DNA from: Halorussus marinus
GTDB taxonomy: Archaea; Halobacteriota; Halobacteria; Halobacteriales; Haladaptataceae
Direction: 5' to 3'
NCBI RefSeq assembly: GCF_004765795.1
Contig: NZ_SBIV01000001.1
Span: 1 to 64,000, forward strand
Length of the DNA: 64,000 nt
In this document: positions 1 to 55,691 of the stretch, piece by piece
Numbering within the stretch: the first letter of the stretch is position 1
How the letters are laid out: every line of letters begins with the position of its first letter
The notes under the pieces: generated by a model
The model's input: only the letters and a program-made list of their open reading frames with translations
Database searches by the model: none
What the model was told of the DNA's origin: nothing
Made by a program: the position numbers and the translations under genes

Positions 1-2
1 GC

Positions 3-1445
3 GGGCGGTGCGTCTCGCTGATCGCGGAGTACCTCCCGCTCCAGGATGGCGGGTCGACGGTGTTCGACAAGGCGTTCGACGCCGAGGATGTCCTCGTCGA
101 GGACACCGATCCGGGGGAGTTCGACGTTGAACCGTACCGTGAGGTCATCGACGCGGTCGCGAGCCGCGACGACCCGGTGGACGTGCTGGTTGAGTCGGTC
201 GCACCGAGCCATCTCGGCGATCGTCACATCAAGGAGGCGCTGATCTGCCAGCTGGTCGGGGCGAACGCGCCGACGGGCGCCGACGGGAAGGACTACCGCG
301 GGCAGATTCACATGTTCCTGCTGGGTGATCCCGGCGCGGGCAAGACCGACTTCGGGGAGGCGCTGGTGCGGCTGGCGCCGCGTTCGCAGAAGTCGAGCGG
401 GAACGAGGGGACGTCGGCGGCCGGGTTGACGGCGGCGATCACTCGCGACGATTTCTCGGACGCGGAGTTCACGGTGACGGCGGGCGCGATCCCGAAGTGT
501 TCTGGCGGGGCGCTGTTCCTGGACGAACTCGACAGCGCTGGCGACCAGGAGCAGAACGCGCTGTTGGAGGCGATGGAGTCGGGCGTGATCAACATCGAGA
601 AGGCCGGGCAGAAGGCCACACTGGAGGCCGAGACGGCGATCCTCGCGGCGGGCAACCCGTCGGGCGGGCACTTCGATCCGGAGCGGTCGCCCGCGGAGCA
701 GACGAACGTGCTGTCGCCGCTGCTCGACCGGTTCGACCTGATCTTCTGTCCCGAGGAGAAGACCGATCCGGACGCGGTCGAGGCGATCGCGGACCACATC
801 ACCGCTGGTCGTGACGCCGCGCAACGCCGGGAGCTCGACAAGAACGTCCCCGAGTCGGCGGACGCGGTCGAGCCGGAGCTGTCGACCGAGGAACTCCGGG
901 CGTACTTGGCGGCGGCGCGGGAGAAACGGCCGGTGTTCGGGAGCGACGAGGTACGCCAGACGCTCCGGGACTGGTACGTTGAGGTGAAAACGCGGATCGT
1001 CCGCCAGGAGGACGAGGACGGTCGGGAGTATCCGGTGACCCCGCGCGCGGTTGGGGACATCGCGCGGCTGGCCGAGGCGTCGGCGAAGGCGCGGCTCTCA
1101 GACGAGATAGAGATGGTGGATGTCGAGCGGGCGACGCGGTTGAAGGGCCGGTCGTTCGCAGAGTTTGGGCTCGACCCGGGCGTCGAGGTCGTTGCGGACG
1201 ACGAGGACGGTGACGAGGGTGGGCTCGACCTCGCGGGGTCGACGCCGACCGCGACCATCACCGAGGTCGTCGACGATCTCACGCTTCAGGGCGCGGACTA
1301 CGGCGCGCCGCGCGAGCAGGTCGTTGCGCGGACAGTCGAGGCTGAGGACGACCTCGATCGAGAGGACGTTCAGGCGTTAGTTGAGGAGATGCTCGCGGCC
1401 GAGACGCTCGACGAGGTCGCGGACGATCGCATGATCAGCGTGTGA
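3..1445 (+). CDS. mcm: MCM-family replicative helicase, 5'-partial (AAA+ domain and C-terminal wHTH-like tail)
   Basis: Walker A GDPGAGKT, AAGLTAA motif, Walker B LFLDELD, hairpin INIEKAG, sensor I AAGNP, Arg finger LLDRFDL, sensor II TPR..ARLAEASAKARLS; frame is open to the window start. Confidence 0.9.
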   Translation, partial: GRCVSLIAEYLPLQDGGSTVFDKAFDAEDVLVEDTDPGEFDVEPYREVIDAVASRDDPVDVLVESVAPSHLGDRHIKEALICQLVGANAPTGADGKDYRGQIHMFLLGDPGAGKTDFGEALVRLAPRSQKSSGNEGTSAAGLTAAITRDDFSDAEFTVTAGAIPKCSGGALFLDELDSAGDQEQNALLEAMESGVINIEKAGQKATLEAETAILAAGNPSGGHFDPERSPAEQTNVLSPLLDRFDLIFCPEEKTDPDAVEAIADHITAGRDAAQRRELDKNVPESADAVEPELSTEELRAYLAAAREKRPVFGSDEVRQTLRDWYVEVKTRIVRQEDEDGREYPVTPRAVGDIARLAEASAKARLSDEIEMVDVERATRLKGRSFAEFGLDPGVEVVADDEDGDEGGLDLAGSTPTATITEVVDDLTLQGADYGAPREQVVARTVEAEDDLDREDVQALVEEMLAAETLDEVADDRMISV

Positions 1446-1607
1446 CCCGGTTTCGACGCGACCACATGGGGTTGCACATCTATAGAATCCATTGCCGAAA
1501 ATTGAACACATCTCTCTGACCTTTGACGACGGACGTGTTCAATTTTCGACCGCGACCAATTGCATAGACCCTCTTTGTCGCGCCGACCAGGGTGGATCAC
1601 CCACTTC

Positions 1608-1652
1608 TTTTATAAATAGCGAAGCTTTCAGTTGTTCCAGATTCCCCTGGAA
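1608..1652 (+). promoter_or_regulatory. TATA box plus inverted-repeat operator candidate upstream of the 1672 gene
   Basis: TTTTATAAATA at 1608-1618; TTCCAG-N6-CTGGAA at 1635-1652. Confidence 0.5.
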
Positions 1653-1671
1653 TCACGAGGTGTGTTCAAAA

Positions 1672-1965
1672 ATGGCCGACTCATATCGCTGGCGACTGTC
1701 TGGAAACCGAGACCTCCTTTTGGAGGACTTGGAGGATGCAACCGGAGAGAACACCAAAGCAAAGGCACTGGAGCGGGCCGTCCTCGGCTACCTCCGGTTG
1801 ACCGGGCAGAACGCGGTTACCTCTGGCGCAGGCGCGTTTGAGGAACTACTGGCGACCGCCGATGAACGTGGGAGCCTGAATGCAGAGGAAATCGCCGAAA
1901 TCCTTGCGACTGACGAACTCCCGATCGAGTACGAGCCCGCCACTTGGTCTGTCGGCGAAGAGTAA
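1672..1965 (+). CDS. Small putative DNA-binding protein (RHH/CopG-like N-terminus), 97 aa
   Basis: ATG 1672 downstream of a TATA box; SYRWRLSGNRDLLLEDLEDATGENTKAKALERAV fits strand-helix-helix; acidic composition. Confidence 0.6.
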   Translation: MADSYRWRLSGNRDLLLEDLEDATGENTKAKALERAVLGYLRLTGQNAVTSGAGAFEELLATADERGSLNAEEIAEILATDELPIEYEPATWSVGEE

Positions 1966-1998
1966 GAAAACGTTCGGCCACGCGCATTATGCGCGGGA

Positions 1999-2316
1999 TC
2001 AGATGAGGCCCTGGTTCATCGCCCACCTACCAATGATCAGAAGGAGAAACAGGACCATGACTACGTCAAATGTGTCGATTTCGTCGGTATCGAGTACGCT
2101 GTTCCCGGGTTGAGGAGGATTCTTCGCGGTCCCTGCCACAGTCTGTAGTTCTTGGCTGACCTTGCTTTCGCTGACCTTCTGCTCGTACTTCCGGCGGACT
2201 TCGCCGACCCACTCCTCCGAGCAGTCGAGTATCTCGGCGATCTCCTCGTTGGTCATCTCGGGGTTCTCTACCGCGAGCGTGAGAATGTCCTCCTGGAGGT
2301 CGGTCAGTTCAATCAT
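1999..2316 (-). CDS. HTH protein with C-terminal transmembrane segment
   Basis: LTDLQEDIL..NPEMTNEEIAEILDCSEEWVGEVRRKY HTH; C-terminal VVMVLFLLLIIGRW; GGAGG upstream of ATG 2316. Confidence 0.7.
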   Translation of the reverse strand: MIELTDLQEDILTLAVENPEMTNEEIAEILDCSEEWVGEVRRKYEQKVSESKVSQELQTVAGTAKNPPQPGNSVLDTDEIDTFDVVMVLFLLLIIGRWAMNQGLI

Positions 2317-2574
2317 CGTGCCGCCCTCCGACGAACGCAAGATTGACGGGACTGGTAGCTCTCGCTTTCAATGCGGGTGGTTCGGCCACCCTCAAACATG
2401 TCCTTCCGCATACGACCCACCTAGCAGTATTTTGACTTGAATTTTATCTTAGAGGATGTTCATGCACCACTGGAATTATTAGATGAATCCTGAGTTTGGA
2501 CTTCCACCTGAATCGTAGGATAAGTTAATATCTGCGCAGGGATTTATAAGTAAGTCGTTAGTACCGGCCCGTAT

Positions 2575-3582
2575 ATGATCACGGACGCCCGAGCACTTCG
2601 CCAAGATCACGTCCCCCAAGAGCTGCATCATCGGGAAGGGAAAATCGACGAGATCTCGTCTGCCCTCAAGCCCGTATCAAACGACGATCCTGGTGAAGAC
2701 ATCCTGATCCATGGAAAGAGTGGGACTGGCAAAACCACTATCGCGAAGTACGTTCTCGATCATCTCAAGCGCGAAACCCTCGATGTCGAGTGGGGGTACA
2801 CGAATTGCATCTCGAACGCGTCGAAAACCGATATTCTCTACTCGTTGCTCCGAGACACCGACCGAGGCGCGGATCTCCGAAAGGAGGGTACCTCGGCGTC
2901 GACGTTCCTTGATCGTCTCCAAGAGATCGACGGTCAGTTCGTCGCGATCCTCGACGAGGTCGACGTCGTCGACGATATGACTACGCTACTCTCGCTCTAC
3001 GAGCTGTCGAACGTCACGATGGTCCTGATTTGCGTCGACGAGGATCGACTCTTCCGCGACCTCGACATCCGTGTGGACTCTCGGCTCCGGTCGGCCCAGA
3101 AAGTCGAACTCGATCCCTACGACAATGACGAACTCGCCGACATCCTGTGGGGCCGCGCCGAGGCGGGCCTGGAGTTCGGCGCGATCAACGACAAGACCAT
3201 CAACTACATCGCCGACATTGCCGCGGGCGACGCTCGGCTCGCGATCGCGCTGCTCCGGCAGTCCGCACGGTACGTCGAGGACACGGACATCGAGGACCGG
3301 ATTACCGTCGGCGTCGTAAACCGCATCGCCGACGATGCGAAGGCGGACATCGCTACACGGTACGTCGAGAAGCTCTCAACACATCAGCGGATTCTCTACG
3401 AGATCATCGCGGACGCGGGCGAGATTAGCGGTGGCGACCTGCACTCGAAGTACGAGCACCGAGCGACGGAGCCGAAAGGGAAGTCGATGCGCCGGAAGTA
3501 TCTCCAGTCGATGAGCCGCGAGGATCTAATCGAGAAAGAGGGCGAGGGCCGTGGGCGACGGTACCGGCTCATCGATCATTGA
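2575..3582 (+). CDS. orc1/cdc6: Orc1/Cdc6 family replication initiator
   Basis: MITDARAL...P..L.HRE N-terminus, Walker A GKSGTGKTT, Walker B ILDEVD, GDARLAI sensor II, C-terminal wHTH; TTTATAA at 2543-2549 suggests a leaderless start. Confidence 0.93.
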   Translation: MITDARALRQDHVPQELHHREGKIDEISSALKPVSNDDPGEDILIHGKSGTGKTTIAKYVLDHLKRETLDVEWGYTNCISNASKTDILYSLLRDTDRGADLRKEGTSASTFLDRLQEIDGQFVAILDEVDVVDDMTTLLSLYELSNVTMVLICVDEDRLFRDLDIRVDSRLRSAQKVELDPYDNDELADILWGRAEAGLEFGAINDKTINYIADIAAGDARLAIALLRQSARYVEDTDIEDRITVGVVNRIADDAKADIATRYVEKLSTHQRILYEIIADAGEISGGDLHSKYEHRATEPKGKSMRRKYLQSMSREDLIEKEGEGRGRRYRLIDH

Positions 3583-3583
3583 T

Positions 3584-3713
3584 TTCCGATAATTCGATAA
3601 TCGACAGAGGGCTGTACTTCCGATAATTTCCGATAATTTCCGACAACGATGATAGAGGCGCTCTTCCCTCCGTGTAGCGGTAAATAGGTCGCTTTCGATT
3701 TACTTCCGATAAT
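3584..3713 (+). repeat. TTCCGATAAT direct repeats (iteron/operator-like)
   Basis: Perfect copies at 3584, 3618, 3628 and 3704; degenerate copies at 3593 (TTCGATAAT) and 3638 (TTCCGACAAC). Confidence 0.85.
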
Positions 3714-3755
3714 GACCGCCCCAGCGCTATATAACAGTGGTTTCTCGCTTCGCGT

Positions 3756-4019
3756 ATGCCGGTACAAACGACAGACACGGCGACTGTTCGGCTCCCCAAC
3801 GATCGGAAGGCGACCGTCGAGAAAAAGAACACGCGGTCGAGCTACTCGGCGCGGGTCAGCGTCTCGCTTGACCGAGAGTGGGTGTTCGGCGTCGACGACG
3901 ATCGGTACGCCGAGCTGCTCGCGACCTACAACGAGCGCGGCGACCTCGCGACCGTCCCGATCCCCGACTGGATGCCCTACGTTCTGGACGAGATCGGGCT
4001 GGAGGGATTCGACGCGTGA
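3756..4019 (+). CDS. Hypothetical protein, 87 aa
   Basis: Acidic ORF with haloarchaeal codon usage; TATATAA about 22-28 nt upstream of the ATG. Confidence 0.7.
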   Translation: MPVQTTDTATVRLPNDRKATVEKKNTRSSYSARVSVSLDREWVFGVDDDRYAELLATYNERGDLATVPIPDWMPYVLDEIGLEGFDA

Positions 4020-4024
4020 TTTGC

Positions 4025-4288
4025 TTAGCTCTCAACCTCAAGCTCGGTAAATACCCGCTCCCCCTTGAGATACGCTTTCCCTCTATCAGTCAAGACGTAG
4101 ACTCCATTCCCGATGTTCTCCAAAAGGCCGTGGTTTGTGAGCACACGACATCGGTTTCCGACATGTTGAGAACCGTATGGGATTCGTTCATCCGAAGCAA
4201 TCTTCGAGGGAATCAGTGGGCCTTCCTCAGAAATAAGTTCCAGAATCCTATCGTCAAGAAGAATCATCCATCGCGGAGAGACGCGCAT
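4025..4288 (-). CDS. PhiH1-repressor-like winged-helix regulator
   Basis: MRVSPRWMILLDDRILELISEEG...V.NRCRVL..HGLLENIGNGVYVLTDRGKAYLKGE is typical of halovirus repressors. Confidence 0.85.
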   Translation of the reverse strand: MRVSPRWMILLDDRILELISEEGPLIPSKIASDERIPYGSQHVGNRCRVLTNHGLLENIGNGVYVLTDRGKAYLKGERVFTELEVES

Positions 4289-4525
4289 ACTATCGAAGTA
4301 TCGGGCAAGGGTGTTATATGCGGGGTTGAGGATACGATAATAATTTCCCATCCGACTATAGAACCACTTGGGAAAACTATAATACCCCGTAGAATACAAT
4401 CATATCATCACGGAACCGACACGCGGACCCGTCGCTCGCCGATGGGTCCATCTCGAAAACGAAGCGGTCCCCGATGTTGGTGGCATCGGGTCCGCGTTAG
4501 GTCCCGTATCCGTGGTACGGAACCC
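4289..4525. promoter_or_regulatory. Divergent promoter (genetic-switch) region with structured leader
   Basis: AT-rich; TATA-like GTTATATG (~4313-4320) for the repressor and CTATAATA (~4377-4384) rightward; TTTCCCA/TGGGAAA inverted repeat at 4344-4375; hairpins at 4421-4525. Confidence 0.65.
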
Positions 4526-5695
4526 ATGTACGACAATATCTTCCGGGGTCTTGAAAGCCCCGAACGAGACGGCGACGGATCGGAGTTCAACTGTCCTTTC
4601 TGTGGCCGCACAGTGTCGGGTCTCAACTCGGAGGGGCCGGACGCGCACAGCTTCGAACCGTGCGGGTGCTCGACGGGCGAGACGACAGCGCGCGAGCTCG
4701 GCGACAGCAGGCCGCGCGTGATGACCGACGGCGGTGTGGCGCGCGGTCACTCCGAGCCGACTGCGGCGAAGAACTACCCGAACGGCCGGTGCCGTGGGAT
4801 CTCGAAGGCGGCAGGGCGACGGTGCCGGAACTCGGCGGGACACGGTCCGACCGGGTCGCTGTGCGCGACGCACGCACTCGAAAGCTCACCGGTGACCATT
4901 GACAGCGACCCGGAGACGTTGATCCGGGAGGTGTCGGAGACGTTTCCGGCGCGGTGCCGGGCGATCGAGCACGACGGCGACCGCTGCACGACGGGGTGTG
5001 GAGCGACCGACCGGTTCTGCGCGCTCCACGAGACGATCAAGGTGCCTGAGGTGGTCGACCAGCTCGACGCGGGCGAACTCGACGTGGTGCTGATCAAGAA
5101 CGCGCTGTCGGCGGCGCGGGGGAGCGACGGGCGGCGGGCAATGACCGACGGCGGGGAAGAGACCGCCGACCAACTTACGCGGCTTGACTGTCCCAATTGC
5201 GAGGACGCCGTTGATGCACGGTATCTCGGGACTGCCCACACCGACGAACACGACGGCCACATCGTCGGCTGGGAGTGCACCGAGTGCGACACAGAACTTC
5301 AGGAACATGTCGACCGCCGCGGTAGTTCCTTCGACCTCGAAGTAGTTGGCGATGAGTCCAGTGCGGAGGCCGAATCTGACGAGACTCGAACCGATGGCGG
5401 TCTTGACACGCGGAGGCTTCGCGTCGGCCCGGCGCGGACGGTCGCCTACGGTCCTGCCGGAGCTAATTCTGGCGAGTGGGCGCTCCGGTTCACGTCGGAG
5501 GACGGCGAGCGCGTGGTGGTCCGACTCGAGGAGGATTCGATGTACGAGCTCTGGACCGAGGTTCACAACGTGCCGTGGCCGAGCCGTGAGGATTCGCGTC
5601 ACGACCTTCAGCGGGAGATCGTCGCTCGGGCGGAGCGTGCGGACGAGGAGATGCTCCGGGACGTCCTCGATGTCCTCGGTGGTGAGTCGACGTGA
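4526..5695 (+). CDS. Modular multi-Zn-finger protein with three TDGG-delimited junctions, 389 aa
   Basis: Likely start MYDNIF at 4526; CPFC..CGC, two C-x10-C-xn-C-x2-H units, CPNC..CTEC; VMTDGG, AMTDGG, TRTDGG. Confidence 0.75.
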   Translation: MYDNIFRGLESPERDGDGSEFNCPFCGRTVSGLNSEGPDAHSFEPCGCSTGETTARELGDSRPRVMTDGGVARGHSEPTAAKNYPNGRCRGISKAAGRRCRNSAGHGPTGSLCATHALESSPVTIDSDPETLIREVSETFPARCRAIEHDGDRCTTGCGATDRFCALHETIKVPEVVDQLDAGELDVVLIKNALSAARGSDGRRAMTDGGEETADQLTRLDCPNCEDAVDARYLGTAHTDEHDGHIVGWECTECDTELQEHVDRRGSSFDLEVVGDESSAEAESDETRTDGGLDTRRLRVGPARTVAYGPAGANSGEWALRFTSEDGERVVVRLEEDSMYELWTEVHNVPWPSREDSRHDLQREIVARAERADEEMLRDVLDVLGGEST

Positions 5696-5895
5696 GTTCG
5701 ACGCGGCCAACGGGCGACCCGCGGATGACGGTCGACCGCGTCGAGGCGTGCGACGACTGCGAAGGCGAGATGCCGCACTCGGTGACGATCGAGATGCGGG
5801 CGGAGGGCGCTTCGATATTCTCGCGCGAGCCGTATCGGGTGGCTGAGTGTCTGGAGTGCGGGTGCGAAACGACATGGAGGATGAACAATGCCTGA
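5692..5895 (+). CDS. Small CxxC..CxxC Zn-ribbon protein of the haloarchaeal FSREPYRV..RMNNA type
   Basis: CDDC...H.V.IE...FSREPYRVAECLECG...RMNNA; GTGA overlap with the upstream stop. Confidence 0.8.
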   Translation: MSSTRPTGDPRMTVDRVEACDDCEGEMPHSVTIEMRAEGASIFSREPYRVAECLECGCETTWRMNNA

Positions 5896-6184
5896 ATCTA
5901 TCGACCAGGACGACAGCGACGGCGACGATCAGATCATCGAAGGCGAGACGGCGACGATCACGGTCCGGCGGATGGGACCGCTCGCATCCCGCGAGTACGA
6001 GATCGAGCTCGACGGTGGGCTACCGCTCGGGACGATCAAGCAGGAAGCCCGTGAGAAGGCTCACGAGGACGGCCTCGACGTGTTCCAAGTCACGCAGGTC
6101 AACGAGAAGATGCTGCGCCAGATTGGCGGCGGGTTCTACGACACCCAGCCCGAGGACCAAGGGCCGGGAGGTGAGTCGGCGTGA
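5888..6184 (+). CDS. Hypothetical protein, 98 aa
   Basis: GGAGG upstream of the ATG; overlaps both neighbours; acidic. Confidence 0.7.
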   Translation: MPESIDQDDSDGDDQIIEGETATITVRRMGPLASREYEIELDGGLPLGTIKQEAREKAHEDGLDVFQVTQVNEKMLRQIGGGFYDTQPEDQGPGGESA

Positions 6185-6762
6185 CGCTTGACTGGCCTGC
6201 GGGATTCGATCGGACGCCGTCGGTGGAGCGCGAGCGGAACCACAGCTTTCAGGCGACGCTCGGTCAGACGACGGAAGACCTCGCGACCGAGATGGAGCGC
6301 CTCGATCCCGACGACTGGCGAGCGGAGATCGGGAACCAGCACACCAAGTCGAACGGGCTCCCGCTGCACAATGCGAACCCGGACGATCCCGGCTTCGTCC
6401 TGCGGTGGCGCATGGACGGCGAGGAGTTCGCGGTCGCCTGCGACGAGTCGCCGCGACTGCGAGATAACGTTCGGACGGTCTATCTGTGGGTTCACGAGAC
6501 GCGGATGCGGAACCAGCGGACAGTTCAGACCGGTGAGGACGAGTTTGCGGCGGCTCGGCTGCCGTCGGGCGATTCCGAGGCCGACGCGGTCGTGGCTCGC
6601 GAACCGCTCCACGAGGTCCTCGACGTCGCGCCGGACGCTGACGAGGCGGTCGTCGAGGCTGCGGCGCGCCAGCTGAAGAAGAAGCACCACCCGGATGCGG
6701 GTGGGGACGAATCGCGGTTCAAGCAGGTTGTCGACGCGGAGGAGGCGATGCTCGGTGAGTGA
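6181..6762 (+). CDS. Virus-type protein with C-terminal DnaJ (J) domain
   Basis: LDWPAGFDRTP N-terminus; HEVLDV...KKHHPDAGG with HPD motif; GGAGGTGA SD. Confidence 0.85.
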   Translation: MTLDWPAGFDRTPSVERERNHSFQATLGQTTEDLATEMERLDPDDWRAEIGNQHTKSNGLPLHNANPDDPGFVLRWRMDGEEFAVACDESPRLRDNVRTVYLWVHETRMRNQRTVQTGEDEFAAARLPSGDSEADAVVAREPLHEVLDVAPDADEAVVEAAARQLKKKHHPDAGGDESRFKQVVDAEEAMLGE

Positions 6763-7789
6763 AGACCTGGAACCGCTCCCGCCGGCGCAGGCGGTGAACT
6801 TGTACCTGAACCACCGCGAGCCGGAACTGTCGGAGAAGTCGGTGGAGAACCAGCGCTACCGGCTGGACGCGTTCATCGCATTCTGCCAAGAGGAGCACAT
6901 CGAGAACATGAACGAGTTGACCGGCCGCGATCTCCACCGGTACCGTGTCTGGCGTCGGAACGGAGAAGGTGACGGGTACGACGACGATGGCGTTTCGAAG
7001 ACGACGCTTCGGACGAATCTCGCTACGCTCCGCGTCTTCTTGGAGTTCTGCGCGGGGATTGACGCGGTCGAGCAGGGGATGCGCGAGCGCGTTCTTCTCC
7101 CAGAGCTCGACCCCGAGGAGGAAGCGAAGGAGGAGAGAGTGTCCGAGGACCGCGCGGAAGCGATCCTCGAACACGTTAACCGATTCCACTACGCGAGCCG
7201 CGACCACGTGATCCTCGCGCTGCTGTGGCACACGGGCATCCGTCTGGGAAGCCTGCGCGCGTTCGACGTGGACGACTTCGACCCGGACTCCCCCTGCCTC
7301 GAACTCCGTCATCGTCCGGAGTCGGGAACGCCGTTGAAGAACGGGCAGGCCGCGAACCGGACGATCGCGGTCGGCGAGCACTACGCCGAGGTACTCCAGA
7401 ATTACATCGCGCATAACCGCCACGATGTGACCGACGAGGACGGCCGCGAGCCACTGATCACGAGCAGTCAGGGCCGACTTACGGAGACCCCGATCCGCCG
7501 GACGGTGTACCAGTGGACGCGGCCGTGCATGGTCGCGGACTGTCCGCACGACGAGGACCCGGAGGAGTGTGTGTACATGATCCGCGACCGCGCGAGCCAG
7601 TGTCCTTCGTCGCGGTCACCTCACGGTATCCGACGCGGCGCGATCACGAAGCATCTCCGCGACGGCACCCCCGAAGAGATCGTCACGGATCGATGCAACG
7701 TGAGCAGTGACGTTCTCGACCAGCACTACGATCAGCGAACGGAACGCGAGAAAATGGAGCTCCGTCGCGAGTTCCTCGAAGACGCATGA
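6755..7789 (+). CDS. int: Tyrosine recombinase/integrase, SNJ2-like family
   Basis: GTG start (VSEDLEPL); TGIRLG (R), LKNG (K), HGIRR (HxxR), DQHYD (Y); Cys-rich insert CMVADCPH..C..C. Confidence 0.92.
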   Translation: MSEDLEPLPPAQAVNLYLNHREPELSEKSVENQRYRLDAFIAFCQEEHIENMNELTGRDLHRYRVWRRNGEGDGYDDDGVSKTTLRTNLATLRVFLEFCAGIDAVEQGMRERVLLPELDPEEEAKEERVSEDRAEAILEHVNRFHYASRDHVILALLWHTGIRLGSLRAFDVDDFDPDSPCLELRHRPESGTPLKNGQAANRTIAVGEHYAEVLQNYIAHNRHDVTDEDGREPLITSSQGRLTETPIRRTVYQWTRPCMVADCPHDEDPEECVYMIRDRASQCPSSRSPHGIRRGAITKHLRDGTPEEIVTDRCNVSSDVLDQHYDQRTEREKMELRREFLEDA

Positions 7790-7867
7790 TTTCGAGCAAT
7801 TCTCCCACCACGACGAGCGAGACTCGGCATGGAATCAGAACCCGCGCTATCCCCGAGAAGTTCACTA

Positions 7868-7880
7868 CCCGGCGAGTCCA
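7868..7880 (+). other. Putative att site: copy of the 3' end of tRNA-Ala (CCCGGCGAGTCCA)
   Basis: About 80 bp after the int stop; matches the recalled haloarchaeal tRNA-Ala 3' end GTTCAAATCCCGGCGAGTCCA; preceded by T-loop-like GTTCACTA. Confidence 0.7.
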
Positions 7881-8261
7881 CTCCCCTCGTTGCACTCGCT
7901 CCGTTTTTTCGCCGACATCACGCTCGCGCGATACCCGTCGTGTCCCTTCATTTCGTCACTCCGTGCTCCGCCCGTCGGACTGTCCGGCGACAGGCCGGCT
8001 ACGCATAGCGATTCGCGGAGCTTCGAGGCGCATCGCCGGGAGCGACGCCGTCGCACGTCGGACGGCTCAAGGGGCCGTTACCTGACCGACCCGCTACCAC
8101 TCGCGGCCAATACCCCCGTCGGGAGTGCCCGAAGCGGTGTTGGGAGTCTGATGCGCTCGGCGGCGTAAACGCGAGCGTACGAAATTCGAATCCGTACCGA
8201 CGCGGCGGAACGCTACGGACGGACTCGGTCGTTCAAAAGGACGGGGACCGAAGCGGTGGGT

Positions 8262-8600
8262 ATGATCGATTCGACCCGCGAGATCCTCGATTACGACCTC
8301 GACTCGGGGACCCTCCGGACCACGTACAGCTACCCGTCTCAGCCGCCCTCGATCGCGGTCCCGATCGCGCTCGGCGCGCTCACCCGGACGTCGCCGACCG
8401 AACTGACTCCGATGTACGAGGCCGCCGGCGTCGACCCCGACTCGCTCGATGACCTGTTTCGGCCCACGCCCGGCGGCGCCGAGCGGAACGCGACGGTGTC
8501 GTTCGACTATCGCGGCCACCGCGTCACGGTCAAAGGCTACGGGCGGGTCGTAATCCGAACCGACGACGCCGACTCCGGGGAGCGTGATCTCGGCTCGTGA
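8262..8600 (+). CDS. HalOD1 (halobacterial output domain 1) protein
   Basis: PSIAV..ALGAL....PTELTPMYE..VDPDSLDDLF...VSFDYRGHRVTV. Confidence 0.8.
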   Translation: MIDSTREILDYDLDSGTLRTTYSYPSQPPSIAVPIALGALTRTSPTELTPMYEAAGVDPDSLDDLFRPTPGGAERNATVSFDYRGHRVTVKGYGRVVIRTDDADSGERDLGS

Positions 8601-20690: not shown

Positions 20691-20758
20691 GAGAGTGCCG
20701 AACTCGACGGGGACGCTCGGCGACGAAGCGTCTCGCGGAACTGAGTTCGGCAAAAGTA

Positions 20759-23588: not shown

Positions 23589-23888
23589 CTACGTCCGGTC
23601 GCGGTCGGTATCGACGCCGCCGTCGGTCGCCGAGTCGAGGCGCTCGACCTCGATTTCGCCGTCGCCCCGGACGACGACGTCACAGCCGCCGAAGGTGAAC
23701 GTGACGTGGCCGGCCCTGACGGCGCCCCGGTTGGTCGGCGCGAACAGTCGGTCGAGCGCGTCGGGATCGACGACGTGGTAGAGCGGGCCGACGTCGGTCG
23801 GATCGCTGTCGGTGGCGTCGGCGACGGCCTCGATGACTCGCTCGCTGGTCGCGGCTTCGAACGTGGTCGGAGTTGCTGTCTGGCTCAT
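23589..23888 (-). CDS. HalOD1 protein
   Basis: SERVIEAVADATDSDPTDVGPLYHVVDPDALDRLF...VTFTFGGCDVVVRGDG. Confidence 0.88.
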   Translation of the reverse strand: MSQTATPTTFEAATSERVIEAVADATDSDPTDVGPLYHVVDPDALDRLFAPTNRGAVRAGHVTFTFGGCDVVVRGDGEIEVERLDSATDGGVDTDRDRT

Positions 23889-39245: not shown

Positions 39246-40480
39246 GCGGCGACGACTCGACGATCGGTCGCGCGCTCGGCGGGCTGGTCGACGCCTCGGC
39301 GATCGAGCGCATCCTGATCAGCCTCGCCGCGCTCGGGCTGTCGGTCGTGGTCGGGGCGGTGGTCGTGCTGATCTCCGGGTGGGTGTTGTCGCCGTGTCCG
39401 TCCGCGCCGTTCGCCACGCTCGGCGGCCTCGGTGAGTTCTGTTACAACCCGATCGAGGTGTACTGGGTCCTCCTGAAGGGAGCGTTCGGCTCGACGTTCA
39501 ACCTCGCGACCACGCTCCAGGAGACGACGCTGTTGCTGTTCACCGGGCTGTCGGTCGCGGTCGCATTTCGGGCGGGCATGTTCAACATCGGGACGCAGGG
39601 CCAGCTCGTGCTGGGCGCGCTCGGCACCGGCCTGTCGGTGCTGTGGGTCGCGCCGGTCGTGCCGGCCGGCCTGGTCGGCGGGGTCGTCCTCGTCGCGGTC
39701 GGCCTGCTGGTCGGGGCGGCGGTCGGCGGCTTCTGGGGGGCGATTCCCGGGGCGCTGAAGGCGTACGCCGACGCCAACGAGGTCATCACCACGATCATGC
39801 TCAACTTCGTCGCGACGGGCATCGCGTTCACCCTCGTCTCGGAGGTGTTCAAAGACCCCGGGAGCCAGACGGTCCAGACCCGGTTCGTCCCCGAGTACGC
39901 CCAGCTCCCGGCGTTGGTCCTCGGGATCGACGGGTTCTCGATGCTGGCGCTCGTCGGCGGGCTGGCGCTCGCCGGACTCGTCTACTGGGTGCTTCGGGGG
40001 ACCAGCTTCGGCTACGATCTCCGGACCAGCGGGGTCCAGCCCGACGCCGCCGAGTACGGCGGCGTCGACGCCAAGAAGACGATGGTCTCCAGCATGGCGC
40101 TGTCGGGCGCGCTCGGCGGCGTCGGCGGCGCGGTGTACGTGCTGATGGTCGCCGGCCAGTGGCAGAGCGGCATCCCGTCGCTCGGGTTCGACGGCATCAC
40201 CGTCTCCATTCTGGCGGGCAACAACCCGATCGGCGTGGTCCCGGCCGCGCTCCTGTTCGGTGCGCTGAAGGGCGGGAGCCTCGTCATCGAGTTCGACCTC
40301 GCGGTCCCCCAACAGCTCGTGGGGGTGCTCCGCGGGCTGGTCATCCTGTTCGTCGCCATGCCGGAGTTCTTCCGGATGGCGGGAATCCGCTACGGCTACG
40401 GCGACGACGAGCCGGCGGTCGCGACCGACGGCGGGACGCCTCGGGAGGGCGGCGCCGACGACGGAGGTGACTCCGAATGA
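39242..40480 (+). CDS. ABC transporter permease
   Basis: AFRAGMFNIGTQGQ, NEVITTIMLN, GFDGITVSILA. Confidence 0.9.
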   Translation: MSGDDSTIGRALGGLVDASAIERILISLAALGLSVVVGAVVVLISGWVLSPCPSAPFATLGGLGEFCYNPIEVYWVLLKGAFGSTFNLATTLQETTLLLFTGLSVAVAFRAGMFNIGTQGQLVLGALGTGLSVLWVAPVVPAGLVGGVVLVAVGLLVGAAVGGFWGAIPGALKAYADANEVITTIMLNFVATGIAFTLVSEVFKDPGSQTVQTRFVPEYAQLPALVLGIDGFSMLALVGGLALAGLVYWVLRGTSFGYDLRTSGVQPDAAEYGGVDAKKTMVSSMALSGALGGVGGAVYVLMVAGQWQSGIPSLGFDGITVSILAGNNPIGVVPAALLFGALKGGSLVIEFDLAVPQQLVGVLRGLVILFVAMPEFFRMAGIRYGYGDDEPAVATDGGTPREGGADDGGDSE

Positions 40481-45162: not shown

Positions 45163-46305
45163 TTACAGCAGGTCGGCGTCGACGAGTCGGTCGACGGCCT
45201 CGCCGATGCGTTCTTTGCTGTTGGCGTACGAGATGCGTGCGTAGCCGGGCGCTCCGAACGCGCTCCCCGGAACGGTGGCGACGTGGGCGTCTTCCAGAGC
45301 CGACTCACACCACTGCTGGTCGTCCTCGTCGACAGGGATCATGAGGTAGAACGCGCCGTCTGGCTCGGGGGCCCCGACCCCTTCCTCGTCGAGGCGGTCG
45401 AGCAGGAACGTCCGGCGCTCGGCGAACGCCTCGACCATCTCGTCGACGGCGTCGTCGGTGTTTTCGAGGGCCTCGACGCCCGCCCGCTGGACGAAGTTGG
45501 TCGCACAGGACACCGAGTGCGAGTGGAGCTTGCCGGCCTCCGAGACGAGCTCCTCGGGGCCCGCGACGTAGCCGAGCCGCCAGCCGGTCATCGAGTAGGC
45601 CTTCGAGAAGCCGTTGACCGTGACGGTCCGGTCGGCCATCCCGTCGAACGTGCCGAGGCTGGTCGGCTCCTCGCCGTAGGTGATCTCGGCGTAGATCTCG
45701 TCGCTGAGGACGGTCACGTCGTTGTCGACCGCGAGGTCGGCGACCCCTTCGAGGGCGGCGTCGGAGTAAACCGCGCCCGTGGGGTTGTTCGGGGAGTTGA
45801 CCACGAGCAGTTCGGTGTCCTCGGAGATCGCGCCCGCCAGCTCGTCCAGCGCGGGCTCGAGCTGGAAGTCGTGGGGCGCGAGGTCGACCCGGTTCAGCTC
45901 TCCGCCCGCGAGCTTCACCATCGCCTCGTAGGAGACCCACGCCGGGTCGAGCAGGACGACCTCGTCGCCGTCGTCGACGAGCGTCTGCATCGTCTCGTAG
46001 AGCGCCTGCTTCGCGCCGGGGGTGACGATGACGTTCTCGGGGCCGTGATCGAGGCCGTCCTCCCGGAGCTTCGCCGCGATCGCCTCCCGAAGCTCGGGGA
46101 TGCCGTTCGAGGAGGTGTAGCCCGTGTGGCCCGCGTCCATCGCCGCCTTCCCGGCGTCGACGACGTTCTCGGGCGTCGGGAAGTCGGGCTCGCCCACGCT
46201 CAGGTCGACGACGTCCGCGCCGTCGGCCTCCAGCTCGGCCGCGAGGTTGCTGATCGCGAGCGTCGCGCTCGGTTCGACCCGCCGGATGCGTTCGCTGAAG
46301 TTCAT
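45163..46305 (-). CDS. aspC: PLP-dependent aspartate aminotransferase (class I)
   Basis: GEPDF, NSPNNPTG, SDEIY, NGFSKAYSMTGWRLG. Confidence 0.9.
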   Translation of the reverse strand: MNFSERIRRVEPSATLAISNLAAELEADGADVVDLSVGEPDFPTPENVVDAGKAAMDAGHTGYTSSNGIPELREAIAAKLREDGLDHGPENVIVTPGAKQALYETMQTLVDDGDEVVLLDPAWVSYEAMVKLAGGELNRVDLAPHDFQLEPALDELAGAISEDTELLVVNSPNNPTGAVYSDAALEGVADLAVDNDVTVLSDEIYAEITYGEEPTSLGTFDGMADRTVTVNGFSKAYSMTGWRLGYVAGPEELVSEAGKLHSHSVSCATNFVQRAGVEALENTDDAVDEMVEAFAERRTFLLDRLDEEGVGAPEPDGAFYLMIPVDEDDQQWCESALEDAHVATVPGSAFGAPGYARISYANSKERIGEAVDRLVDADLL

Positions 46306-46703
46306 AGCGCTTGTACCATCTCGACCGCGGCGTTTACCGCTTCCGCTCCCTTGTCGACGCGCTCGCGGGCCTCCGCGCCCGACATCCCGGGACCGCTGAC
46401 GCCGAAGGCGACCGGGGTGTCCCGATCGAGGCTCACGTCGGTCAGCCCCTGGGCGGCGGCGTCGGCGATGACCCGATCGTGGTCGGTGTCTCCGGTCACG
46501 ATCGTGCCCACGACCGCCACGGCGTCGATCTCTTCTTGGCGGGCGAGTCGGTCGGCGGCCAGCGGCGAGTCGTACGCGCCGGGCACGCGGAGGGTCTCGA
46601 CGATCTCCGCACCCCGGTCGGCGGCCGCCTCGCGGGCGCGCTCCTCCATCTGCTCGGTCACCTCGCGGTTGAACCGCGAGACGACGAGGCCGAGTGCAGT
46701 CAT
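46302..46703 (-). CDS. ribH: 6,7-dimethyl-8-ribityllumazine synthase
   Basis: VSRFN, VPGAYDSPL, GDTDHD, PVAFGVSGPG. Confidence 0.92.
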   Translation of the reverse strand: MTALGLVVSRFNREVTEQMEERAREAAADRGAEIVETLRVPGAYDSPLAADRLARQEEIDAVAVVGTIVTGDTDHDRVIADAAAQGLTDVSLDRDTPVAFGVSGPGMSGAEARERVDKGAEAVNAAVEMVQAL

Positions 46704-55293: not shown

Positions 55294-55691
55294 CAAACAA
55301 CACTGACGACCGAAGCAGTTTGGTACCGGGGCTGGCGGCCGTCGCGCTGTTCGGCGTGCTCGCCGTCGTGTTCGTCCGGGCGTCGTTCGGCGACGCCGCG
55401 GGCTTCACGGGCGGAGAGGGCGTGGTCGCGAGCATCGGCTACGCGCTGTTGAACATCCAGCACCCCGACGCGATCCCCAGCGAGGGCTTTCTGGTCGCGT
55501 TGCTCCTGATCGCGGTAGTGCTCGACGCCGCGCTCGACGGCGCGGTGCTGCTCGCGCGCCGCGACGAGAACGGCGAGATCACGACCGCCCTGCGGTCGAA
55601 CGCGGCCGACGACGAGGCGACCAGCGAACCCGTCGCCGCCGCTGACGGCGGCGTCGTCGCGTCCGACGACTCCGAGGAGGTGACCGGCTGA
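55290..55691 (+). CDS. nuoJ2: Complex I-like subunit J, C-terminal half
   Basis: SIGYALL, LDAALDGAVLLARR; ATGA overlap. Confidence 0.85.
   Translation: MTNNTDDRSSLVPGLAAVALFGVLAVVFVRASFGDAAGFTGGEGVVASIGYALLNIQHPDAIPSEGFLVALLLIAVVLDAALDGAVLLARRDENGEITTALRSNAADDEATSEPVAAADGGVVASDDSEEVTG

Follow-up and report, generated by a model that had tools for sequence, protein, structure and literature searches.

We analysed the first 64,000 bases of a Halorussus marinus contig (the window; 67.6% GC, with acidic proteins) and in it P0001, a four-module open reading frame (ORF) whose modules are joined at a short peptide built around Thr-Asp-Gly-Gly (TDGG), which we call the tag. P0001 opens at an ATG that its aligned relatives share, behind a conserved leader. 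The gene, its modules and its three tags were located as follows (lengths in amino acids, aa).

4526..5695, + strand: P0001, four-module ORF of 389 aa, the first gene of an operon whose members overlap and whose last member encodes a tyrosine integrase
4526..4735, + strand: module M1, CPxC...PCGC zinc-finger-like, found by itself in many relatives, whereas in others the tag comes next and then one of 47 different modules
4718..4735, + strand: tag 1, V-M-T-D-G-G, residues 65-70, containing the 14-mer at 4721
4736..5155, + strand: module M2, two CCCH-type fingers and a helical part, phrog_23711, not in the paralogous element on contig C6 of the same genome
5138..5155, + strand: tag 2, A-M-T-D-G-G, residues 205-210, containing the 14-mer at 5141
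5156..5401, + strand: module M3, CxxC...CxxC zinc-ribbon-like, with a weak DUF7838 match under the Pfam cut-off
5384..5401, + strand: tag 3, T-R-T-D-G-G, residues 287-292, with Thr where a hydrophobic residue is usual
5402..5695, + strand: module M4, an alpha/beta domain without Cys that fits no known family, encoded by its own gene in many elements and fused behind the tag in others

The initial annotation had described four modules joined at TDGG, and this was confirmed by the translation, with TDGG at residues 67, 207 and 289, and by exact DNA words at 4721, 5141 and 5390. The 14-mer ATGACCGACGGCGG was exact at 4721 and 5141, and ACCGATGGCGG stood at 5390, in tag 3, whose counterpart in the C6 paralogue reads I-R-T-D-G-G. 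The cysteine patterns were C23-x2-C26 ... C46-x-C48 in M1 and C222-x2-C225 ... C251-x2-C254 in M3, and M4 had zero cysteines. M2 had been credited with two C-x10-C fingers; the first has this spacing (C89-x10-C100-x12-C113-x2-H116), but the second has x9 (C144-x9-C154-x3-C158-x6-C165-x2-H168).

Our gene calls for this genome held 91 TDGG in 1.04 million residues, about twice the expectation (41-48). Three within one 389-aa protein gave P ~6e-6 per gene, and no second gene with three was found among the called genes of this genome; the gene caller began P0001 at 4892 and hence credited it with two. The 14-mer had four copies genome-wide, two of them inside P0001. Codon preference in this genome was ACC for Thr before Asp (84%), GAC for Asp before Gly (96%) and GGC for Gly before Gly (81%). 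Because MTDGG is normally spelled with these preferred codons, the 14-bp identity adds little, and the repeat is mainly the preferred spelling of MTDGG, reused as crossover microhomology.

A search with the whole of P0001 gave 10 matches, full length only for the window's own entry and each with a different subset of modules. P0001 is M1-M2-M3-M4 and the C6 paralogue (an operon without M2, C6:277286-283647) is M1-M3-M4; other arrangements were M2-M4, M2-X, M1-Y-M2-X, W-M4 and M1-PadR. The DNA of the C6 paralogue showed 90% identity beginning at 5128, 13 bases ahead of the second 14-mer. Breakpoints were scored in 109 proteins of at least 100 aa, with shorter ones, query duplicates and three unrelated repeats excluded. 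The tag was carried by 86 of the 109, in 53 arrangements, and splitting at the tag produced 234 modules in 78 single-linkage families. Alignments ended on the right at -2..+8 of the last Gly in both partners in 530 of 1073 cases (random placement, 500 trials: mean 9, maximum 19) and started on the left at the tag in both partners in 109 of 388 (mean 5 under random placement); pairwise breakpoints are non-independent and alignments tend to extend through a shared motif, a caution that belongs with the objections gathered further below. One-sided DNA likeness (at least 72% on one side, <50% on the other) was seen in 23 pairs among 115 tag windows, and in these pairs it switched within a few codons of the tag.

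Single modules gave the same picture. M4 had matches in 29 of 401 genomes, many as a separate gene, and its nearest named records are haloarchaeal, for example Halorussus, Halobaculum and Halosimplex. M1 had matches in 76 of the 401, many of them weak CPxC micro-proteins, and its relatives either terminate at a stop or continue through the tag into another module. The M1 profile search returned 150 proteins, 75 with the motif, a share biased upward because the profile contained the tag. With the tag-free M4 profile, 18 of 24 longer hits had the tag directly upstream, and two hits came from the genome of the window itself. P0001 is a chain of independently swapped modules, and the tag is where they are exchanged, at the level of both protein and DNA. 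The in-frame cassette shuffling suggested by the initial annotation is thereby supported: searched module by module, homologs occur alone, fused and reordered, and both the alignment ends and the one-sided DNA pairs place the breakpoints at TDGG.

The tag is hydrophobic-x-[T/A/P/S]-D-G-(G/A/S). In 155 distinct contexts the residues at -3 from the Asp included V (58), L (45), A (18), I (16) and P (9), those at -2 A (52), V (38), R (22) and M (14), and those at -1 T (105), A (33) and P (12), with little conservation past D-G-G. Acidic and amide swaps amounted to four [TA]EGG and one [TA]NGG against 137 [TA]DGG; variants at element joints included TDGA and TDGD. In this genome 18 of 51 tags had flanks poor in order-promoting residues, compared with 9 of 194 control hexamers (p 4e-8). 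The tag pattern occurred 228 times against 24 for the reversed pattern in 27 haloarchaeal genomes, and 174 further genomes from the phylum gave 106 matches; this control was not codon-matched, permuted-peptide patterns in the genome of the window gave only 13 vs 6-7, and the counts are a hint of range only. No description of this motif in haloarchaea was found in a literature search that left subscription papers mostly outside.

In terminal copies the first Gly was GGA, GGT or GGG in 10 of 11 and an overlapping stop-start followed in 9 of 11, whereas internal copies had GGC in 49 of 59. Because terminal copies thus have Shine-Dalgarno (SD)-like Gly codons over the next start and internal copies GGC, a single cassette boundary serves both fused and split genes. 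Sister modules are known in terminal and internal form (e.g. loci L041 and L064), and M4 itself ends in the SD-like GGTGGTGAG and a GTGA overlap into the next gene. These terminal copies, the 3-fold enrichment of [TA]DGG in the last 10 residues of proteins of this genome (23 vs 7.3 expected) and the translational coupling that such overlaps mediate in H. volcanii (accessible sections of PMC6728339) could all point to a fossil gene boundary or internal restart, with Gly-Gly as Shine-Dalgarno and an ATG or GTG restarting translation. We regard this as very unlikely. The internal GGC codons are not SD codons, Met stands before the motif in only 14 of 155 contexts and seldom after it, which speaks against the internal ATG restart once considered for P0001, and the loops inside SdhA and AtpI described next, like the conserved hydrophobic-x-Thr-Asp part, would be left unexplained.

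The tag was common to most haloarchaea sampled, in variable acidic loops, tails and fusion linkers of host proteins. We measured its conservation in 41 genomes of the order, and for AtpI and SdhA the best 30 loci were followed by further ones. The AtpI loop carried the tag in 35 of 39 cases (30 of the 30 best loci and 5 of 9 further, covering all but two of the genomes), and kept it regardless of loop length, which in the first 30 loci varied from ~30 to 68 residues. An SdhA insertion that is not present in solved homologues carried it in 35 of 40: all 30 best loci (22 strict DGG, 8 DGA/DGS) and 5 of 10 further loops, the other five being two with DGR and three without the insertion. CoxA tails had it in 20 of the 22 read, from 30 loci. 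In Amt-GlnK fusions one to four copies stood at the joint in 27 of 27; split Amt tails had the tag in 3 of 3 in the fusion search and in 12 of 14 in a further, partly overlapping set. No such tag was found in the AtpI loop of five non-halophile genomes in the phylum (three loops seen). The Asp and first Gly were present wherever the loop exists, and no conserved loop had Glu for Asp.

The codons of 132 host copies matched the background of the same genes (ACC 64 vs 66%, GCC 53 vs 61%, GAC 90 vs 91%, first Gly GGC 67 vs 70%); this count was selected on Asp-Gly, and the loop tallies were not. Because synonymous codons are at background while Asp-Gly is retained in every existing loop, selection acts at the peptide level, and the tag peptide is under purifying selection in AtpI, SdhA, CoxA and Amt. 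In host genes the constraint lies on the peptide, and the motif is kept in unshuffled housekeeping proteins; the idea of the DNA repeat as the selected entity is not supported. The host-wide conservation of the tag is strong and unexpected, whichever factor reads it.

The same codons bear on the view that the tag is a DNA site only, a recombination hot spot or target of a mobile-repeat machinery, with a peptide that arises as a side effect and is tolerated where the protein is flexible. Crossovers do map to the motif, Haloquadratum shows repeat-mediated deletion at 10-19-bp repeats (PMC3119063, in part), a two-hairpin repeat is inserted in frame behind the GACGG of the tag in SdhA, Amt, CoxA and AtpI and ends in the same word, and consensus codons are mildly in excess in element genes (ACC 30 of 39 vs 60%, p 0.03; first-Gly GGC 49 of 59 vs 65%, p 0.003). 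We consider a DNA-only site improbable, given that in host genes the synonymous positions are as variable as background while the loop keeps its Asp-Gly, that 30 of the 33 exact 11-mers within locus genes share one reading frame, and that the hydrophobic position is written with many different codons for V, L, I and A.

The two-hairpin repeat is 45-55 bases long, resembles repetitive extragenic palindromic (REP) sequences and was seen right behind the tag in several genomes (L139, L140, L142, L147, L148, L227, L237, L238, L263, L308-L310). Ending in CCGACGG, it creates a second xSDGG. The genome of the window has three clear copies, all in coding frame: C9:90510-90563 (L139), C1:614098 (-) and C4:92385 (-). 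Its second hairpin has CGTC/GACG arms as in CGTC-tagged REPs (PMC3733652, in part).

The initial annotation had also raised cleavage after Gly-Gly, on the pattern of the ubiquitin-like SAMPs. Viral polyproteins of the GG|X type would be a further parallel, and the modules would be left ending in di-glycine. Conservation is strong upstream and drops sharply past the second Gly, and behind many copies stands a tail of 2-4 residues, as in a ubiquitin-type precursor; the short tails are, however, accounted for by the overlapped Shine-Dalgarno. The second Gly was replaceable: Ala or Ser in the 8 of 30 SdhA loops that had no strict copy and in 11 of the 132 host copies, Arg in 2 more genomes, and varied in the TDGA and TDGD joints of elements. 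The modules, moreover, are not beta-grasp proteins. A Gly-Gly cut is in our view unlikely, and a cut after Asp is favoured because the second Gly is often Ala or Ser and the Asp and first Gly are kept in all loops.

Several host loci showed further variation around the tag. The ammonium transporter Amt and GlnK (P-II) formed one in-frame ORF in 27 of the best 30 loci from the 41 haloarchaeal genomes (L209-L233, L237, L238); separate Amt and GlnK genes are described in H. mediterranei (PMC3831643, in part). Long CoxA fusions of 849-860 aa (L278, L279) had two tags at the joint, and other long forms of 763-764 aa (L274, L275) had a joint without the tag. Two haloarchaeal families (G010, G027, G011, G028; L293-L300, L244-L248) were without the AtpI loop and the SdhA insertion; one of them retains Amt-tail tags and the other has a degenerate AVDGG, which makes a natural contrast for a factor search. 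Within the window, more tags lay in tails or loops of chromosomal genes at 40418-40480 (+), 55635-55691 (+), near 23627 (-) and 18190 (-), for example EPAVATDGG, 14 residues short of the C-terminus of a membrane protein.

From these sequence comparisons we propose that the tag joining the modules, conserved at the protein level, is the Asp|Gly cutting site of a putative host protease. Cutting there would free the modules as separate small proteins; we put the probability of this reading at roughly 0.45. The scheme would begin from the observed mosaic, in which modules stand alone, fused or reordered and the likeness between relatives begins or ends at the tag. The 12-20 bases of tag DNA, a near-identical word because preferred codons spell the tag, would then be the place where elements cross over, either losing DNA by repeat-mediated deletion or exchanging it with one another, and crossovers there would preserve the reading frame. 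When a module comes last, the Gly codons become Shine-Dalgarno-like, 2-4 codons before an overlapping stop-start, and the cassette would be functional fused or split. The tag peptide is held by purifying selection in AtpI, SdhA, CoxA and Amt. Lastly, a cytoplasmic or membrane-bound host protease may cut after the Asp; fused partners, such as Amt and GlnK or the modules of an element protein, would thereby be separated, and tails and loops would be trimmed or nicked.

Cleavage sites of the caspase-8 and granzyme B type have a hydrophobic P4, a small P2, a strict Asp with Gly next and an unstructured setting. The anatomy of the tag matches this pattern, with strict Asp at P1, a small P1', a hydrophobic P4 and flexible flanks. 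Its position, at joints between units found elsewhere as separate proteins, also counts for cutting. Extracts of H. volcanii cleave LEVD, VEID and IETD substrates with very high activity, which zVAD preferentially blocks, and no caspase homologue is present (PMC3615174, in part). When Flag was placed at the C-terminus of AmtB1 in H. mediterranei, the protein was mostly a cleaved fragment with the cut unmapped, and AmtB2-Flag gave no signal (PMC3831643, in part). The readable files of the ArcPP supplements (PMC7305310, in part) held no peptide strings with the motif; the raw peptide lists could be informative on cutting.

A number of results weigh against a cut at the tag. Peptidase_C14 and CHAT matches were found in 0 of 5 genomes, the window's own included, in a search that did not extend to other Asp-specific protease families. 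A cut would free nothing obvious where the tag is internal to SdhA and AtpI, where it stands in the tails of CoxA and Amt, or where only 2-4 residues separate it from a C-terminus. VDVAD-AMC was a poor substrate in the H. volcanii work, at 9-47% of the IETD rate (PMC3615174, in part), and at P3 the tag has Ala, Val or Arg, the best reported substrates having Glu, which was seen in 4 of 155 contexts. The AmtB1 fragment was membrane-located, with its start placed by the authors before the last helix (PMC3831643, in part); in the Amt tails that we examined the tag is downstream of this start, AmtB1 itself not being among the sequences compared. The remaining 6 of the 24 M4 fusions joined small helical or helix-turn-helix domains without a tag, and the M2 relative of the halovirus phiCh1 is joined to another domain without one. 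Tag copies in CetZ (not conserved) and AcnA (in only 3 of 8 loops seen) were counted as chance. The ACC and GGC excess shows some mild DNA-level pull in element genes, expected if crossovers also favour near-identical DNA.

The main rival is an uncut short linear motif, which we hold to be a substantial though still doubtful possibility. An abundant host factor (e.g. a membrane quality-control protease or an adaptor) would then recognise the tag as a docking site or degron, or the tag would be a modification site (Asp methylation, or isoaspartate at Asp-Gly), and element proteins would stay fused, be handled by this factor and shuffle at the tag DNA through microhomology. The tag is kept within the single subunits SdhA and AtpI and in tails with nothing to release, tandem copies are spaced 6-14 residues apart, and modules function fused or split, so that release may be unneeded. 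Within flexible parts, 7 tags fell in 4,011 residues of polytopic membrane proteins and 8 in 38,559 of soluble ones, so that the membrane proteins were ~8x denser, a ratio of small numbers. However, the exact joint position in 27 of 27 Amt-GlnK fusions and 2 of 4 long CoxA fusions counts against an uncut tag, an Asp without Glu substitution in conserved loops would be stricter than most docking motifs, and no partner is known.

Returning to the Asp|Gly cut, a wider form is tentatively suggested, at rather less than even odds: most haloarchaea may process proteins across the proteome at hydrophobic-x-[TA]-D|G-G by a non-caspase Asp-specific protease, with core complexes among the targets (ATP synthase subunit I, succinate dehydrogenase, cytochrome oxidase, Amt-GlnK fusions), a system which viruses and elements would exploit for combinatorial micro-domain polyproteins shuffled at the cut-site DNA.

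Bases 1-7800 of the window are an integrative element with MCM, Orc1/Cdc6, a divergent winged-helix-like gene and the overlapping-gene operon with the integrase. Its features outside P0001 were these.

60..1445, + strand: MCM helicase, running in from the contig start, a replication gene of the element
2575..3582, + strand: Orc1/Cdc6, a replication gene of the element
4025..4399, - strand: small divergent winged-helix-like gene, a probable repressor with weak matches only
4372..4525, + strand: TATA-like box, rich in AT, and a structured 5' leader that is conserved ahead of M1, outside the tag, with a putative promoter role
5692..5895, + strand: DUF7835 zinc-finger gene (E 5.7e-20), overlapping the P0001 stop
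5888..6184, + strand: 98-aa ORF of no known family, same operon
6181..6762, + strand: protein with a J-domain-like C-terminal part, phrog_9210
6695..7789, + strand: tyrosine integrase by Pfam and PHROG, true start probably a GTG near 6757 that overlaps the preceding stop

The leader at 4372-4525 was conserved in 10 loci, with 20 predicted pairs of which 6 showed compensatory change; Rfam gave no match within 3500-8300, leader included. A GGAAGC-like word stands at the 5' end of the leader and again just ahead of the ATG, and the two could compete for the same partner. No att (attachment) site or tRNA was found adjoining the integrase, the nearest tRNA in the window being at 20758. MCM genes 93-96% identical lie at contig ends at C4:364194-365579 and C21:6839-8217 of the same genome; near-identical genes at contig ends imply that the left part of the window's element is unassembled. 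The genome also holds another Cys-rich polyprotein with two tags (C13:14412-15842) and an M1-tag-PadR-like gene (C19:4767-5300), and it encodes a haloarchaeal Mre11 equivalog. A tag-bearing element of haloarchaeal type was found on a contig labelled Rhizobium sp. (L085), likely through contamination or mislabelling.

The modules themselves gave few matches to known families. M1 matched no Pfam or PHROG family, and Pfam scans of P0001 and 40 proteins (4 modules, 36 relatives) showed only PadR, DUF7123, DUF7838 and zinc ribbons, with PadR domains as common fusion partners. M2 was 44% identical over 91 aa to phiCh1 ORF79, annotated as 'repressor protein'. An AlphaFold single-sequence model of P0001 was uninformative, with a mean predicted local distance difference test (pLDDT) score of 38. 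The M4 model reached pLDDT 66, and its best structural match had Z 4.1 and a root-mean-square deviation of 2.3 over 45 aligned residues, which does not by itself demonstrate a new fold; Foldseek with this model found nothing at E 0.001. In the ESM Atlas M4 and M2 had no matches of at least 0.9, and the M2 lead was DUF5763-like at 0.85. Viral contigs scanned with M4, M1 and the M4 alignment gave nothing but one chance match to an unrelated RNA-virus-like contig, which was excluded from the counts. Because M2 resembles the ORF79 'repressor', PadR partners are frequent and the operon ends in an integrase like that of SNJ2, the modules are likely regulators of the element life cycle or proteins that interact with the host.

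Whichever reading holds, strong selection on one peptide motif across the lineage, in proteins central to bioenergetics, implies that haloarchaea have a host factor not yet recognised. If the tag is a protease site, the identity and targets of the very high haloarchaeal caspase-like activity, a question open since 2010, become testable, with natural substrates and a handle for purifying the enzyme. Fused Amt-GlnK would then undergo processing, and many hypothetical proteins of haloviruses and integrative elements would be precursors of several micro-proteins. Even without a cut, the tag offers a working rule for dividing these mosaic ORFs into domains and accounts for their in-frame shuffling. 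The tag of phiCh1 ORF75 offers a well-studied halovirus as a possible test system.

Integron attC sites and shufflon sfx sites have a conserved DNA core that is independent of frame and codon choice, and a dedicated recombinase. No such core was seen here, where the tag keeps a single frame, has background codons in hosts and shows a mild consensus excess in elements; a tyrosine integrase lies downstream of P0001. SAMP/ubiquitin and GG|X precursors likewise have a di-glycine and then a short variable tail. Their invariant terminal Gly-Gly was not found in the tag, as the replacements of the second Gly (among them Arg in 2 SdhA loops) showed, and no beta-grasp precedes it: Pfam scans gave no ThiS/MoaD/Ubl hit, and the modules are Cys/His fingers, PadR or unknowns.

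Among haloviruses, phiCh1 ORF79 (GenBank MK450543.1) has an N-terminal part like M2 and another C-terminal part, with no tag; near it, ORF75 (45971-46591, L313) has two modules joined by IIADGG. The integrase of the window had no blastn match in a phage collection. SNJ2-type integrase operons (PMC5861418, in part) likewise have small overlapping genes, one of them winged-helix, co-oriented with a tyrosine integrase and with a divergent neighbour, and in SNJ2 the small genes aid integration; the accessible sections of that source describe no tag or module shuffling. In Haloquadratum, repeat-mediated deletion and deletion-coupled insertion (PMC3119063, in part) exchange or lose DNA exactly at 10-19-base direct repeats, which fits the crossover step, but those repeats are unrelated from case to case, while here one coded motif stands at every joint and the frame is kept.

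The H. volcanii caspase-like activity (PMC3615174, in part) belongs to the same lineage and shares with the tag a hydrophobic P4 and Asp at P1, and no caspase homologue accompanies it, as in the five genomes here; according to the accessible sections it is known from synthetic tetrapeptides only, and the P3 and P2 of the tag differ from LEVD. Polyvalent proteins (Iyer et al., 2017; PMC5512222, in part) also combine unrelated mobile-element domains in one variable chain, and release by proteolysis is proposed there. P0001 and its relatives resemble them in their variable combinations of unrelated domains (53 arrangements, 86 proteins) on an element with integrase, MCM and Orc1/Cdc6. Their hallmarks (MPTase, ArdC-N, ART, an embedded peptidase) were absent from the 389-aa P0001, in which Pfam and PHROG scans showed no peptidase domain. 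Polyvalent proteins are large and mostly have a peptidase of their own (MPTase, assemblin-like; PMC5512222, in part), in contrast to the 100-480-aa micro-domain chains found here, whose joint is a motif common to host housekeeping proteins.

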